Position numbers and translations under genes: made by a program. A model generated the notes under the pieces. It saw nothing but the letters and a program-made list of their open reading frames with translations, was not told the origin of the DNA and searched no databases. From Octopus vulgaris (lineage: Eukaryota), in contig OX597826.1 in assembly GCA_951406725.2 (NCBI GenBank), forward strand, positions 74,958,001-75,022,000: a stretch of DNA of 64,000 bases. Reading direction: 5' to 3'. This document shows positions 18,315 to 60,897 of the stretch, one piece after another; the first letter of the stretch is position 1; every line of letters starts with the position of its first letter.

Positions 18315-18349
18315 GTTTCTGACGAAGAGCTCCGCTCGAAACGTTAAAC
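18315..18349 (+). ncRNA. Minimal Penelope-type hammerhead motif (35 nt)
   Basis: GTTT-CTGACGA-A-GAGC-TCC-GCTC-GAAA-CG-TT-AAAC; stems I and II pair perfectly; stem III is reduced to the palindrome AACGTT. Confidence 0.7.
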
Positions 18350-20127: not shown

Positions 20128-20472
20128 GTGTGTGTATATATATATATATATATCAAAAATAAGGGTGAAAAAATTGGATATTAATTTAATAATAACATCA
20201 ATTTAACACCAAGTGGTTGAGACCATTGCGGATCTATTTTTAGCGCAAGAGCGACCACATAGTGGACACTCTCTTATATTTGTGTATGTATATATATATA
20301 TATACATATATATATGAGAAATATATGCATACATATATTCAACAATACATAATATACACACAGCAATATACATATACACACATAAATATACACACATATA
20401 CTAACATATATATATATATATGATACATGAATATAACATACAGATACATGTAAGCATACACCCAACATTTAC

Positions 20473-21250: not shown

Positions 21251-21638
21251 ATATCACCATGACCGACAAGGCTATCAGATGTTGCTACACATCGCTGGTC
21301 ACAATGTGCTTTCGCATCGTTTTAGCCTTCAAATGACACCACCCTGCTGGCTAAGCAAGCAGGCCAACAGAGGAAAGAGTGAGAGAAAGTTGTGGTGAAA
21401 GAGTACGGCAGGGATTGCCACCACCCCCTGCCGGAGCCTCGTGGAGTTTTAGGTGTTTTCGCTCAATAAACACTCACAACGCCCAGTCTGGGAATTGAAA
21501 CCATGATCCTACGACTGCAAGTCTGCTGCCCTAACCACTGGGCCATTGTGCCTCCACACACACACACACATATATATATATTCAATTTTAATTCAATTTT
21601 TTAAAAAAATATCATTCGATACATAATACATATTTTAT

Positions 21639-21728
21639 ATCTCTGAAGAGCAGAAGTGTTGTCTATAAGTGCTTATCAATATAGGACTTCATTATAGGGA
21701 CAACCTTTTTGCGAAACGATCGTAAGAT
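21639..21728 (+). ncRNA. Type I hammerhead ribozyme motif with extended stem II
   Basis: ATCT-CTGAAGA-[GCAGAAG..GTTGTC..TATAA...TTATA..GACAAC.CTTTTTGC]-GAAA-CGATCG-TA-AGAT. All core nucleotides are present; stem I ATCT/AGAT; palindromic stem III; GUA cleavage triplet. Confidence 0.8.
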
Positions 21729-22644
21729 GCTTAAAAACTTAATTCAAAACTTTTAAACTTTCAAATTTATTTTAGACATCATATTTATATTTTTAATATT
21801 TATTTATTTACTTATATTTTTAATACATAAAGTCTTTCATATGGGTATATCTTTGTGAAAAATTTGATATTGATTTCCTTATATTAATAATAATAATATA
21901 TTATTAAAAAGTATATGTCTGTATATATATATATATATATATGATAATATATAAGTGTATGCATATATACATACATATATGTACATACCTACATATGTAT
22001 GTATATATACATGCATATATGGGTACAGGACATCGAAAAAACGTTGAACACAATGAGAAACAAAAACATAGAAAACGAACTTTTTTTCAAACAACGAAAG
22101 AAACAGAGAAACAAGACATACAACATAAAGACTATTCCCCTTCTTCAGTTGTCCCTGTTTCATCTACCCCGAGTTTTGAAGGTAAGGGCAAGATGCGACT
22201 TCGTTGAAACAGTCCTTCTCGCAAAGCAAATTAGATAAAATTTGGGATTTTTTGCTGAGGGTAAAAATGGTGACAAGAACAGAACAATAAGAACAAAAAA
22301 AGATAGTAAAAACAATAAAAGACAGAACAATGAGAATAAAACAGTAAAAACAAATGATGAGGGTTGCTAAGCCAAGACAATGGAAAAATTATTCTGAACA
22401 CTTCACTTCAATAACACTATTATACTTGTTCCACATCCTCGCGTTGTTGTGTTTTCATGTTTGGATTAACTTTATATATATATATATATATATATACATA
22501 TATTTAAATAATGAGGGTGATAAATTGAATATTAATTTAATTAATATCAATTTAAAACCAGCAGCCTATCATATAGAAAAGTCTGAAAATTCATATATAT
22601 ATATATATATATATATATGTAGGCTGTATACGATATGTATTGGC

Positions 22645-23800
22645 AGGTTGCCAACCTTTCCTAATATGATCCAGAATACATTCCCATTAACTGTATCAAA
22701 AGCCTTTGATGGTTGAATAAGCACTTGATAAAGATCAACACACCATTCAAAACATTTCTCTTGTATTTACCAAACAGTAGTAATCATATCCAAATCTCCC
22801 TCTCCTTCTCCAAGACCAGTTTTGTAGTAAGACAGATGGACACGTTTTTTTGGAGAAGTCAGTTCAAAAGAACCCTTGAAATTAACTTTTAAAAGCAAAG
22901 CGATATCTCAATAGCTTCCACATGCACTTCTTTACCCCTTGTCGTTATATAATGAAAACATGATAGCATTTCCTACTGCAGATGAAACTAGAAAGCATGT
23001 TCGTTCCAGTACTTCATAATACCATTTGAAGTTTGGGCATTCTTAGAATTTTCTTTATCAACCATGGTTGTAATGTATAAATCTTGAGGCCCTTAAAACA
23101 ATTTTATAGTTCATACGTGCAACTAATATCCTTCCTCACAGGCAATGCCTCTATTTCAACAGCTTTTTTATTCATTAGCTGTCCTTCATCCACCATCGCT
23201 TGACAACCGATGCTGGTGTGTTTATGTCCCCATAACTTAGCAGTTTGGCAAAGGGGGCCGATAGGATAAGTACTAGGCTTACAAAGACTAAGTCTTGAGG
23301 TTGATTTGTTCAACTAAAACGCAGTGCTCCAGCATGGCCGCAGTCAAATGACTGAAGCAAGTAAAATTTTTTTTAAAATACTTTTAAAAGAACATGCAAA
23401 AGCCCACAGTTTAGAAAGAACAGTACGGCAGGGATTTAGCATGAATTAAAATAGTCTTTGAATGTTGCACCACGTCTCATGAATCAATTTTGAATACGCT
23501 TGGCATATAATGTCATCTGCATCGTTTGAAGCATAGGTGACAGATAAAGTAACTGTGGGCTTCCAACTGCTTAGGTCTGCACATGTCACAGCTCTTCTGC
23601 TGTCATAGAACTTTCAAGAGATGGAATGAAAAAATGAGGTCACCTTCAAGAAACATCTGTTCGTCACTGGATTATAGTGGTAAGCGCTAATACAATGCAA
23701 ACAGCACTCTCTGAGTCCCTGCGATTAGTAACTAAGGACAGGCTGAAGCAAGATAACCCCATTGTCACATGAAGCCACAGGTTTTACATCAATGTGTCCC
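22645..23800 (-). mobile_element. Degenerate RTE LINE reverse-transcriptase fragment interrupted by a SINE piece (23185-23365)
   Basis: LYQVLIQPSKAFDTVNGNVFWIILGKVG matches the RT motif DLxKAFDTV; many stops. Confidence 0.65.
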
Positions 23801-26186: not shown

Positions 26187-27709
26187 TATTTGATAAAATA
26201 GTCTGAATGCTAAAAGGTTAAACCTATATCTACATCTAATGACATATCAGATGGTTGCTATCACAGTATTTGCCATCTTGGAACAAACTGTCTTCAATTT
26301 ATGCTGTTTTGTGAGATATTCTCTATGGCAGGCACTTCATGGCATTTCTTTGTTGACAGGAAACTTTGTGAATCCAATTAGTTGCTAAGTGATGACTTGG
26401 ATCAGCATCAGTTAGATTTTGTCAATAGAAAAATGAAGCTCAGATTCATTGCTTTATAGCATGAAACTGTTATCCATTTTAAAAGATGAAAAAAAAAATC
26501 ACCGCAGAAAGAATGTGGAAGGCAATCTCCAAAAATTTGCAGAGCTCAGATATTTTATCAAATAATGTCGGATACTGTAACTCAATTATTTGCAAAGTGA
26601 AATTGTATATTCTTGTGAATATACTAACGAAATTTGTACTGAAATTCACATTTAAATATGAATGGGCTCACGTGGCCAGCTACAGCCTGTATGGTCTTTT
26701 GAACCTAAAGACTTTCCAGCCAGCTATGTCCAGGTTGGTCTCATCATCATCATCATCATCGTTTAACGTCCGCTTTCCATGCTGGCATGGGTTGGACGAT
26801 TTGACTGAGGGCTGGCGAACCAGATGGCTTGCACCAGGCTCCAATCTTGATCTGGCAGAGTTTCTATAGATGGATGCCCTTCCTAATGCCAACCACTCCG
26901 AGAGTGCAGTGGGTGCTTTTTACGTGCCACCGGCACGAGGGCCAGTCAGGTGGTACTGGCAACAGCCATGCTCAAATGGTGTTTTTTATGTGCCACCTGC
27001 ACAGGAGCCAGTCCAGTGGCACTGGCAACGACCTTGCTCGAATGTTTTTTTTTTTGTCAAAAGGGTTAAACTTATATCTACATCTTACGATATATCAGAT
27101 GGTTGCTTTTCATAGCTTTTGTCATCTTAAAACAACCTGTCTTTGATTTACACTGTTTTATGAAATGTTTTCTATGGCAGGTGCTTCATGGCATTTCTTT
27201 GTTGACAGGAAATTTGGCAACTCAAGTTAGTTGTCAAGTGATGACTTAGGTTGGCGTCAGTTGGATTGTATCTATAGAAAAATCAATCAATGATAAAATA
27301 TCTTTTACTTATATCAACTATTGGGCTGTGGCCAAGCTGGGGCACTGCCTCGAAAGGTTTAGTTGAAAAAATCAACCCCAGTCCATTTTTTTAAAGGTTG
27401 GCACTTGTTCTGTTGGTCACTTTTCCAAAACCTTTAAGTTACAGAGACATAAACAAACTAACACTGGTTCTCAGGCAGTGAGGGGACAGACATAAACACA
27501 AAGACACACCTATACACACACACACACATCATACATGCATACATGCACACACACATGCACACATACACACACACATGCACTCACGCACACACACATGCAC
27601 ACATGCACACACACACACACACGCAAACAAGCAAACATACATATATGTATGTATATATATATGTAAATATGTATATATGTATATATATATATGTATGTAT
27701 GTATAAATG

Positions 27710-27978: not shown

Positions 27979-28030
<52 letters not shown>

Positions 28031-28384
28031 AAATGAGATAGGGGTTGAAAATTCAACCCACCATGGGATAACATATATCCAATATACTGCTAGATAGGTA
28101 CCCAACAAGACTAATACATAGATGTTAAAAATTGCCAAGCAATTAGTTCATCTATTGTATTATATGGGCAAAGGTAATAATATTACCGTAAATTAATACT
28201 ACAAAATTAGAAAATGGAGAAACATACTTAAATCAATAAAACATCAACTATCAGATGATACCCAATCAATACTTTATTACACCATTACATATCAGTAAAG
28301 GCATTATACAAAATATATAGTAAATATAAATAGACAAGGAAATAGAAATATAAAATATAAGATATAATATGTAATTATATCATA

Positions 28385-28494
28385 TCTGACAGCTGTTTCG
28401 GCAGTAAGGGCAGTCATACCTCATTTAACCTATAAGCCATAAAGGCAGGTATAAATGAGGCATTAACAAGGATGCCCCACGGCCTCTTCAGAGA
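28385..28494 (-). ncRNA. Type I hammerhead ribozyme motif with 85-nt stem II (copy 1)
   Basis: Reverse complement of 28974-29083. Confidence 0.8.
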
Positions 28495-28973
28495 ATTTAA
28501 TTTTTTATAATTGTGAAAAAATTATTTTTCCATATACATATAAATATAAAAATATAAAAATGTAAAATATAAAAACTTGTGCATAAACTCCATAATGCTA
28601 CACATATATAATACTCATTGATACAATAATGCAAGGTAAACAAAACAAAATAAAACAAAATATATATCAGTGTATATATTAATATTAATAAGCACAGTTA
28701 TTTTACATATTTGGCTAATAGTTCTAAAAACTAACACATAGGGAGATGTATGCGCACTACTATTTAAATTAAAATCATACCTATACCTGAAAAATAATAA
28801 TAAAAAAATAATAAAAAACCATAGTTCAGTTCATAAAATTATAAACCTATAAAAGTCAATAAAAATTACTATTAATATTAATAATAATAATAATAATAGA
28901 TACAGTTATGTTTGCACCAAGTCCATCCTTTCAAAATCGAAATAACTATGAGTTACATTATAACAAATTAAAT

Positions 28974-29083
28974 TCTCTGAAGAGGCCGTGGGGCATCCTT
29001 GTTAATGCCTCATTTATACCTGCCTTTATGGCTTATAGGTTAAATGAGGTATGACTGCCCTTACTGCCGAAACAGCTGTCAGA
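28974..29083 (+). ncRNA. Type I hammerhead ribozyme motif with 85-nt stem II (copy 2)
   Basis: TCT-CTGAAGA-GGC...GCC-GAAA-CAGCTG-TC-AGA with a GUC cleavage triplet. Stem II folds as GTGGGGCA/TGCCCTTAC, ATGCCTCATTTA/TAAATGAGGTAT and ACCTG/TAGGT. Confidence 0.8.
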
Positions 29084-29499
29084 TATGATATAATTACATA
29101 TATTTTATATTTTATATTTCTATTTCCTTGTCTATTTATATTTACTATATATTTTGTATAATGCCTTTACTGATATGTAATGGTGTAATAAAGTATTGAT
29201 TGGGTATCATCTGATAGTTGATGTTTTATTGATTTAAGTATGTTTCTTCATTTTCTAATTTTGTAGTATATATATATATATATATATATATGCAGATAAT
29301 AAAATACATTAATGCTACATCAACGTTTTCTAAATTTTCTTCTGAATATTTATAAACCAGGATTTATATATTATTTTAAGAATATTATTATTCACAAAAA
29401 GTACTAGGCAATGAACCAGTAATTCATTGGATATTACTATCCCTTAATGAGACTGTTTTAACCTCTAATTGAATGTATATATATATATGAATATACAAA

Positions 29500-29543
<44 letters not shown>

Positions 29544-30089
29544 TGATGAGCTTTCATCAACTTAATTCACCTACAACACTTTGGTGTCACCCTGAGGCTA
29601 TAATAGGAAACACTTGTTCAAGGTGGTACATAGTGGGACTAAACCTGAAACCAGTGCCTACAAATTGCTATTTTTACAATTCTTGATAAATGCATATTTT
29701 TGTAATCTCAGAGGATTTTCTATCAACGTTCTATTTAGATATCTTTTTACATATTTCAAGATTTTCTTGTGATCATATCTTTTGTATCCATAAAAGCATG
29801 TAATTTTCTTTCTTCACCTTTCAAATAATTTGACATAAGAACGTGTGATCCATGTTCAAGTTTTGAATACTTCTAAGTTGTTTTACCCAACCTGTATTTA
29901 CATGTTTAAAATCTTACCTGAGAATAGTTGGTTTATGATTATGATCTAAACATAGACTGCATCAATAAAATGCTTCTAAAACAGGTGTAATAAATTTCAA
30001 ACCTTGATTGTGTTCTTCTTCTATATGTGCCTATGCCACACCTGGAACCAACCCTGAGTCAGATCTATGATTTATATTGGATTTAGTAC

Positions 30090-30126
<37 letters not shown>

Positions 30127-30154
30127 TATACATATATATGTATGTATATATATA

Positions 30155-30186
<32 letters not shown>

Positions 30187-30187
<1 letters not shown>

Positions 30188-30625
30188 CTACAAAATTAGA
30201 GAATGGAGAAACATACTTAAATCAGTAAAACATCAACTATCTGATGATACTCAATCCATACTTTAATACACCATTACATATGAGTAAAGGCAATATATAA
30301 AATGAAATGAGATATACAGTAATAGTAAAAGTAAAAAGATAAAGAGATATAAGTAAAAAATTTCAAATATAATATGCAAATAAATCAAAACTGACAGCTG
30401 TTTCGGCAGTGAGGACAGTCATACCTCATTTAACCTATAAGCCATAAAGGCAGGTATAAATGAGGCATTAACAAGGATGCCCCACGGCCTCTTCAGAGAA
30501 TTAAATTAAATTTGTTATAATAGTGAAAAATATTATATAATCATATACATATAAATATAAAAATATAAAAATGTAAAATATAAAAACTTATACATCATAA
30601 TGCTACACTTATATAATATAATACA
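30187..30625 (-). mobile_element. Third, more diverged copy of the same Penelope-like arm
   Basis: Aligns to 28198-28615; flanked by TA-rich microsatellite. Confidence 0.7.
30391..30499 (-). ncRNA. Hammerhead motif, same family (copy 3; stem I shortened)
   Basis: Same core and stem II with two substitutions; the 3' strand of stem I reads AGT instead of AGA. Confidence 0.7.
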
Positions 30626-30987
30626 CATTTGTACAAATATATATATGTACAAATATATATATGTATATATCATCATCATCATCATCATCATCATTTAGCG
30701 TCCGCTTTCCATGCTAGCATGGGTTGGACAGTTGAACTGGGGTCTGTGAAGCCAGAAGGCTGCATCAGGCCCAGTCTGATCTGGCAGTGTTTCTACGACT
30801 GGATGCCCTTCCTAACGCCAACAACTCCGTGAGTGTAGTGGGTGCTTTTTACGTGCCACCCGCACAGGTGCCAGACGGAGCTGGCAAACGGCCACGAATG
30901 GATGGTGCTTTTACGTGCCACCGGCATATATATATACATATATTTAGATATATATATATATACACACCCATATATATATTTGCATGC

Positions 30988-31265
30988 TGTATAAAAGATC
31001 ATGGGTTAAGCCAAAACAATGCAAAGTAAATGCAGGGTAAATCACAAGAAAACAAATATGTGAATTAATGTAGACTTATCTTATATTCAATATATCAGGG
31101 TTATGACCCCATTTCCAAGAAATAGATGAATTTCTTGAAAATGGGGTCATAACCCTGATATATTGAATGCAAATTAAGTCTACATTAATTCACATATGTG
31201 TTTTCTTGTGATTTACCCTGCATTTACTTTGCATTGTTTTGGCTTAACCCATGATCTTTTATACA
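30988..31265. repeat. Long palindrome (about 136-bp arms, 6-nt loop)
   Basis: Arms are reverse-complementary with only a few mismatches; centre gaaat-agatga-atttc at about 31126. Confidence 0.9.
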
Positions 31266-31820
31266 ATATATTCTATACAATGTTCCATAGTAATTATTCC
31301 ACCTCCTCCACTGGCTTCTGCACCGGTGGTATGTAAAAAGCACCATCTGAATGTGGCCGTTGCCAGTGCCGCCTTGACTGGCTTCCATGCCAGTGGCACG
31401 TTAAAAGCACCAACCGATTGTGGCCGCTGCCAGACTCCCCTGGCACCTGTGCCAGTGGCACGTAAAAAGCACCCACTACACTCGCGGAGTGGTTGGCGTT
31501 AGGAAGGGCATCAAGCTGTAGAAACACTGCAAGCTCAGACTGGAGCCTGGTGCAGCCTCCTGGCTTCCCAGACCCTGGTCGAACCATCCCACCCATGCTA
31601 TCGCGGAAAATGGACATTAAACGATGATGATGATGATGATGATGATATATATATATCACCAGCCGAAATTGCAAAGATAATCTGGAACTTGACTGAAGAA
31701 AGAAAAATTCCGAATGACCCGTCCTTGTTTTCTTTGTATTGTCTCTCTGGATGTTTTGTTGTCCCTTTTTCACATCACCTAACTGTCTGGATGTTTTGCG
31801 ATCTTGTCCCATTTTGCATT

Positions 31821-60551: not shown

Positions 60552-60897
60552 ACAGTTCTATGTTTAAGAGATGAGGAATTATGTACATTATTTACATTAT
60601 TTACATTATTTACATTCGACAGATATTTGTCCTCATCTTGTTTGTTGTTAAGGAAGGTGAGGAAAATATTAGATTTATAAGCCCTAAAATTCACTCCATA
60701 ATTACCCACAGGCATATGGTGTAGTGGTTAATTCCAATTAATAATAATAGCAACAGCAACAACAACATTGAAAAATACCCAGGTTCGAAATTTCTCCAAG
60801 ACACCTGATGAAGGCTGGAGAGTATATCAGCTGAAACGTTGTGTTAACAACAAACAAGATGAGGACAAATATCCGTCAAATGTAAATAATGTAAATG
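60552..60897. mobile_element. Penelope-like inverted-arm element (family 2) in TRIM last intron
   Basis: Inverted arms 60595-60651 and 60843-60897 plus a hammerhead at 60801. Confidence 0.6.
60801..60844 (+). ncRNA. Minimal Penelope-type hammerhead motif in the last intron of the TRIM gene (antisense)
   Basis: ACAC-CTGATGA-A-GGCTG-(10 nt)-CAGCT-GAAA-CG-TT-GTGT. Confidence 0.65.

Follow-up and report, generated by a model that had tools for sequence, protein, structure and literature searches.

The region between positions 28025 and 30625 of a 64,000-nt window of Octopus vulgaris DNA (the window being the whole stretch that was analysed) carries hammerhead ribozyme motifs, two of them back to back, and raises the question of what kind of element they belong to and whether they could act where they now lie. 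The first-pass annotation inferred a non-autonomous, retrozyme-like Penelope parasite with inverted arms, whose transcripts from either strand could self-cleave. The reading favoured here, and considered probable, is that an abundant Penelope-like family left three 5′-truncated copies of its 3′ end (pseudo-LTR) at the locus, two of them head to head. On this reading each hammerhead motif, with its 85-nt stem II, would be active as a dimer within the parent RNA and would not cleave at this locus.

The motifs and their parts, together with a further motif upstream in the window, are as follows.

28388–28491, minus strand: type I hammerhead motif from C3 to C17, with an 85-nt stem II and a 3-bp stem I.
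28977–29080, plus strand: type I hammerhead motif with a 3-bp stem I, predicted cut at 29080/29081.
28984–29068, plus strand: stem II of 85 nt, predicted to form an unbranched 33-bp rod with three G-U pairs.
29072–29079, plus strand: stem III, self-complementary, 8 nt, predicted dimer helix (duplex −11.1 kcal/mol).
30393–30496, minus strand: third-copy hammerhead, identical at 102/104 nt, with a 2-bp stem I.
21643–21724, plus strand: unrelated hammerhead motif with palindrome ACGAUCGU, a GUA triplet, a 63-nt stem II (23 bp) and a 5-bp stem I.

Motif scans find in each core of the region CUGAAGA, an 85-nt insert closed by a G-C pair, GAAA, the palindrome ACAGCUGU and then C17, with a GUC triplet in the motifs at 28977–29080 (plus) and 28491–28388 (minus). 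This confirms the hammerheads that had been described in both arms of the locus, with CUGAAGA...GAAA, GUC, a palindromic stem III and a 3-bp stem I. The third copy, reported about 1 kb away, does lie at such a distance (918 nt from the right end), but its stem I has only 2 bp. The elements of a type I hammerhead core are present, namely CUGANGA, GAAA, an NUH triplet and the A15.1-U16.1 and G10.1-C11.1 pairs. The two arm hammerheads are identical across 104 nt; core, palindrome and triplet are invariant in all three copies, and no listed family variant falls at those positions. When the three helices are considered separately, stem II is strong, stem I has only 2–3 bp, and stem III is stable only as a dimer.

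A strict motif was defined by a palindromic stem III of 8–12 nt, a stem II of at least 3 bp and a stem I of at least 2 bp. It occurs four times in the window and in none of 200 shuffles of the window in 2-base blocks, and thus the hammerhead motifs are not attributable to chance. A search of the window against Rfam gave no matches at the gathering threshold; this test is insensitive here, since it also overlooked the minimal motifs at 18319 and 60805, which look canonical.

The 85-nt insert folds at −40.1 kcal/mol (z −6.78), and none of 200 shuffles is as stable. The fold is a bulged rod of 33 pairs, three of them G-U, with one hairpin loop and no multiloop, so that stem II is unbranched; the earlier description of an 85-nt branched rod was right in its length and wrong in its branching. 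The sense strand folds better than the antisense strand (−38.4 versus −29.4). In the comparison of the left and third copies, which amounts to two distinct sequences, is without two-sided covariation and sets a GC-richer motif against AT-rich flanks that may mutate faster, substitutions fall at 2/104 positions in the motif, 28/190 downstream and 15/133 upstream, the difference between motif and downstream flank having a Fisher p of 2e-4. Both motif substitutions are swaps between G-U and G-C, and pairing is retained. A ribozyme more conserved than its flanks, as the first-pass annotation had anticipated, is therefore what the copies display (2/104 against 28/190).

The stretch, or part of it, is carried by 20 of the 24 public sequence runs listed, under four organism labels, and none of these is on record as RNA. 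Four of the 24, with three organism labels, were aligned to 28030–28985, the repeats at 28522–28666 and 28762–28985 being skipped, and all four gave contigs at 80–100% identity (2782, 1129, 764 and 130). The family is large, diverged and abundant, while contig counts give no copy number. Among the contigs, the only listed substitutions within the motif are at 28406 and 28410, matching the differences between the copies, and the sole listed insertion within it, at 28441, sits in the terminal loop. The alignment contains 36 variable places in 28030–28387 and two in the 104 nt of the motif; with 40 of 54 variant places shown, the comparison of 2/104 with 36/358 has p 0.007 as listed and p 0.16 if the remaining 14 lie in the motif. 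A role of stem II as cargo or as a handle for a protein is plausible. A SECIS or kink-turn reading of the rod was considered and rejected, there being no match by eye to the consensus.

The motif at 21643–21724 sits in a solo AT-rich piece of about 330 nt (21584–21915, plus strand) between TA-rich tracts. Its 63-nt stem II has a z of −2.9, with 1/200 shuffles as stable, and its best predicted dimer is the active form, at −49.0 versus −39.2 for two monomers. Homology between the 85-nt and 63-nt stems was rejected, the longest common word being 7 nt (p 0.27). Elsewhere in the window, ordinary minimal hammerheads of the GAAACGUU type with a short stem II lie at 18319–18345 and 60805–60840 (both plus strand); these are probably other Penelope-like fragments.

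For the 85-nt form, the predicted energies favour the dimer over the monomer as the active state. The active monomer is predicted at −36.4 versus −43.0 for the best monomer, and the active, strand-swapped dimer at −88.7 versus −86.0 for two free monomers and 2 × −36.4 for two active ones. The best predicted dimer, at −95.7, has a slipped stem I with G5 and C17 paired and is inactive. It lies 7 kcal/mol below the active dimer, and so the ribozyme, if it works, probably needs help.

These energies bear on an alternative that is regarded as unlikely, in which the core no longer cleaves and the 104-nt block is kept for protein binding, as a promoter, or for a splice donor in stem II. Judged by the splice consensus, the plus strand has a donor-like GT at 29049, in the 3′ half of stem II, and an AG at 29265–29266 that resembles a pyrimidine-rich acceptor; together they would delimit a possible intron at 29049–29266. 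The AG falls at the short 3′ end common to two copies, and an intron of this extent would remove the cleavage site. Besides this site, a non-cleaving block is favoured by the slipped inactive register being predicted as the most stable and by the weakness of stem I, and it has a parallel in the anole element, for which cleavage is not required for insertion in vitro and no read ends were found at the cut (PMC11167929). Against it, no splice joint for 29049–29266 appears in the contig alignment, the core, palindrome and triplet do not vary in 3/3 copies or among listed family variants, and the unrelated family with the 63-nt stem is built alike, its best fold being the active dimer.

The arrangement of the copies bears on where such cleavage could occur.

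27989–28029, no strand: (TA)n tract forming the left boundary, the likely target site.
28026–28195, minus strand: 170-nt 3′ extension resembling a "tail", present in the left copy only and absent from the right arm and the third copy.
28196–28511, minus strand: left arm, comprising the hammerhead and its 3′ flank, 98% identical to the right arm.
28512–28956, minus strand: AT-rich upstream part of the longer minus-strand copy, earlier called a "spacer"; 28512–28613 is also in the third copy.
28957–29269, plus strand: right arm, an inverted copy whose truncation point lies 20 nt upstream of the hammerhead core.
29267–29291, no strand: (TA)n tract forming the right boundary.
30187–30618, minus strand: third copy, single-armed, 5′-truncated and of another subfamily, 85% identical to the left copy, TA-rich on both sides.

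The ORF-less unit of about 1.25 kb in (TA)n that had been described is recovered as 28026–29269 between the two (TA)n tracts, and no ORF of at least 120 aa overlaps 28025–30625. The inverted arms, given as about 305 bp, are slightly longer: 28196–28511 and 28957–29269 align over 316 columns at 98%, with two substitutions and one 3-nt gap. They do not both form the termini of the unit, as the left copy extends a further 170 nt (28026–28195). The third copy (30187–30618) matches 28198–28613, the arm and about 100 nt of the middle part, at 85%; since it carries 28512–28613, the "spacer" is the upstream part of a minus-strand copy, to which 28766–28956 presumably belongs as well. The left and third copies continue to agree on the upstream side of the core, where the right arm breaks off at 28957; this indicates that the right arm is a short inverted copy set on the truncated 5′ end of the long minus-strand copy.

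Two 3′ end points can be distinguished, a far one at 28026 and a near one at 28196, 29269 and 30187. At one common 3′ site both the right arm and the third copy give way to (TA)n, and the left copy runs 170 nt past this site. The hammerheads are set back from the two 3′ ends by about 190 and 360 nt. Both ends have counterparts in the wider family: the extension at 28026–28195 is covered by many variant contigs in all four aligned runs, and in seven contigs of one run (X4) the sequence changes to (TA)n at 28200, which is the short end. Bridging pieces with 26–27 letters on one side, under the 31-letter bar, suggest that the extension is linked to the arm in other copies too. Family contigs also lie on about 28640–28765, and at 28361 the right arm has the family-majority base, whereas the left arm does not. 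Single-contig joints at 28268–28382 and 28107–28382 are too weak to use.

A transcript that crosses both arms is predicted to fold back, with 104/104 bases of each ribozyme taken up in pairing between the arms; for the third copy there is no free partner in cis. Cutting from either strand at this locus is consequently unlikely, and the earlier claim that transcripts of either strand could self-cleave is not upheld, the predicted fold-back pairing each ribozyme with the other arm. Since read-through RNA would contain a duplex of about 316 bp, the copies found here are likely to be silent fossils.

The origin of the inverted arm has other possible explanations. It is quite improbable that, in an element of Penelope-like origin, the arm arose by self-priming, through the fold-back of one nascent cDNA with a 445-nt loop. 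Self-priming has been proposed for head-to-head Penelope junctions (PMC3846280), and arms that differ by only two substitutions and one 3-nt gap would suit it. However, the right arm stops where the independent third copy stops, which fits an RT start site on RNA, and no palindrome is seen at the junction.

Very doubtful is the view that the 1.25-kb unit, with its two arms, constitutes a non-autonomous family whose inverted repeats are fixed and which is copied whole and can cut transcripts of either strand. The lack of an ORF and the 98% likeness of the arms would agree with such a family, as would the account that pLTRs alone can mobilise sequence in trans (PMC3846280); its junction at 28956/28957 lies in a repeat-skipped stretch of the contig alignment. 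The third copy, though, is single-armed and yet carries the "spacer", the arms are asymmetric, with the left 170 nt longer, the predicted fold-back hides both ribozymes, and retrozymes are direct tandems (PMC7229834). A dedicated element of retrozyme-like kind, with inverted repeats at its termini, is not supported, in view of the single-armed, "spacer"-bearing third copy and of the head-to-head layout in (TA)n, which is the published Penelope pattern. It is hardly credible that the inverted arms are an assembly artefact: no aligned contig spans the junction, which lies in the stretch skipped as repeat, but each arm has its own differences, the family-majority base at 28361 occurring in the right arm only, and such layouts are described as typical of Penelope insertions (PMC8557442).

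The favoured reading, three truncated 3′ ends of a Penelope-like family, was also approached through coding remnants. No remnant of an RT or GIY-YIG domain was found by Pfam in 150 of 347 translated segments, a set of non-repetitive segments of at least 55 aa made up of 139 of the longest and 11 picked by hand, most of them near the hammerhead pieces; the six weak matches were all below curated cut-offs, and none was to RT or GIY-YIG. A six-frame search of the window for RT and GIY-YIG motifs returned one match only, which spans stop codons. Because such a remnant was not found in the window, Penelope parentage rests on ribozyme type and layout; the missing ORF is expected, given that the copies are truncated. 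Ribozyme type and layout agree with a Penelope-like element in several respects. A hammerhead with a palindromic stem III lies near the 3′ end, the dimer-type anatomy that the first-pass annotation had recognised. One copy is inverted and 5′-truncated, the tail is one-sided (longer than published), and the target is AT-rich or (TA)n, in which a target-site duplication is unreadable. The locus behaves as the truncated end of a Penelope-like family would, and it is probably one.

Published EN+ Penelope-like insertion units share several features with the locus: truncated copies stand head to head, both strands bear a hammerhead, only one end is extended, and the flanks are (TA)n (Arkhipova et al., 2013, PMC3846280; Craig et al., 2021, PMC8557442). 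In particular, Penelope-like elements have been described with an inverted 5′-truncated copy, with a one-sided tail and with (TA)n as the target, Penelope-13_HM has hammerheads on both strands (PMC8557442), and dual minimal hammerheads occur on opposite strands 100–700 bp apart (PMC4209133). The locus differs from those units in carrying no ORF remnant and in an extension of about 170 nt, as against the 30–40 bp given there. Animal non-LTR retrozymes (PMC7229834; bioRxiv 10.64898/2026.07.22.740005) are likewise non-coding, with a type I hammerhead, and likely Penelope-derived, but they form direct tandem repeats of 150–450 bp that give rise to circular RNAs, whereas the copies described here are inverted or solo. 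The window is AT-rich DNA with many microsatellites, which are its only tandem repeats, and the copies are inverted or 2 kb apart; membership in the non-LTR retrozymes fails for want of direct tandem repeats.

The ribozyme itself resembles minimal Penelope-type hammerheads, in the portions of the literature compared, in its CUGANGA/GAAA core, the G10.1-C11.1 closing pair, the palindromic stem III, a short open stem I, and flanks that are rich in U upstream and in AU downstream; ACAG/CUGU arms of stem III, joined by a 2-nt loop, also occur in several of the Hydra-clade motifs tabulated. It lacks an extra base after A9. The main difference lies in stem II, whose inserts measure 85 nt (33 bp) and 63 nt (23 bp) in this window as against about 25 or 53 nt. 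The published hammerhead descriptor allows a stem II of 3–7 bp with a loop of 3–10 nt, about 25 nt at most (PMC4209133), the spacing between core halves was limited to 17 nt in a survey that places half-cores 35–50 nt apart and whose longest tabulated insert, counted by eye in PLE-X1_sMoe, is about 53 nt (PMC8557442), and a "long helix II" denotes 6–8 bp (PMC13725137), all as given in the parts of these sources drawn on. Cases labelled HHR_half_core among Naiad elements, including an octopus Naiad, are alike in having core halves far apart (35–50 nt) and (TA)n targets (PMC8557442). By eye, neither of the two octopus Naiad consensus sequences in the same material shows the motif with the 85-nt stem at its 3′ end. 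Short motif searches of the supplement to PMC8557442, in which line breaks can hide matches, gave none, and neither approach linked the locus to octopus Naiad or Hydra consensus sequences in the portion covered.

The literature searched, with the Terminon paper, Repbase and Dfam outside that search, showed no Penelope hammerhead whose stem II is this long. Scans for the long-stem pattern gave 34 viral and 38 metagenome loci, of which 0/34 and 0/38 combine a palindrome, a stem I and a closed stem II, and no loci in prokaryote genomes; these blanks say nothing about spread, because animal DNA is scarce in the collections. What is new is the long stem II, conserved and occurring in two unrelated families, and the back-to-back layout was already known.

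For the locus as a truncated Penelope-like insertion, the following course may be proposed. A Penelope RT/GIY-YIG protein encoded elsewhere would nick both strands of the (TA)n tract, and each nick would prime a cDNA on element RNA, at a far start site (with the 170-nt tail) or at a near one. Both cDNAs would stop early and join at their truncated ends, leaving the ribozymes back to back. Two cDNAs, one per start site, joined in this manner would fit the activity of purified Penelope protein: it cuts single strands of the target on both sides and extends them, using two RT start sites by which the tail is defined (PMC11167929). In the parent tandem transcript, ACAGCUGU would join two ribozymes in an 8-bp stem III, and the dimer would be cut after GUC, probably with the help of protein; the anole element hammerhead cuts only with its protein (PMC11167929). 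The long stem II would hold the core closed, may be under selection as RNA, and would likely be a binding site for the protein of the element.

Other repeats were noted in the window. The pieces at 20149–20280 and 22501–22592, the latter partly palindromic, are short, related (about 83% alike over 60 nt) and set between (TA)n tracts; they are possibly solo tails of another (TA)n-targeting element. On the minus strand, 22600–23000 is a decayed stretch that by eye may be a LINE reverse-transcriptase remnant, with no Pfam match on two segments. A near-perfect palindrome of 136 bp (96%, 6-nt spacer) occupies 30988–31265, and two SINE-like copies, at 30659–30886 and 31428–31656, are inverted around it; these and a third at 26741–27043 have internal subrepeats of about 65 nt and (ATC)n ends. 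A direct repeat of about 225 nt, 80–90% alike with 849-nt spacing, is formed by 26212–26437 and 27060–27286.

For the role of hammerheads in Penelope-like elements, the conserved 33-bp stem II offers a handle for testing protein-assisted cleavage. Given that descriptors cap stem II and its loop at about 25 nt and core spacing at 17 nt, counts of ribozyme-bearing clades may be too low. More tentatively, there may be a class of dimer-type Penelope hammerheads with a giant stem II (63–85 nt, at least two unrelated families in 64 kb) that published descriptors have missed and whose rod is a selected functional module, for example a putative protein-binding switch for cleavage. If this is so, relaxed searches would find working long-stem forms in some clades thought to be hammerhead-free.
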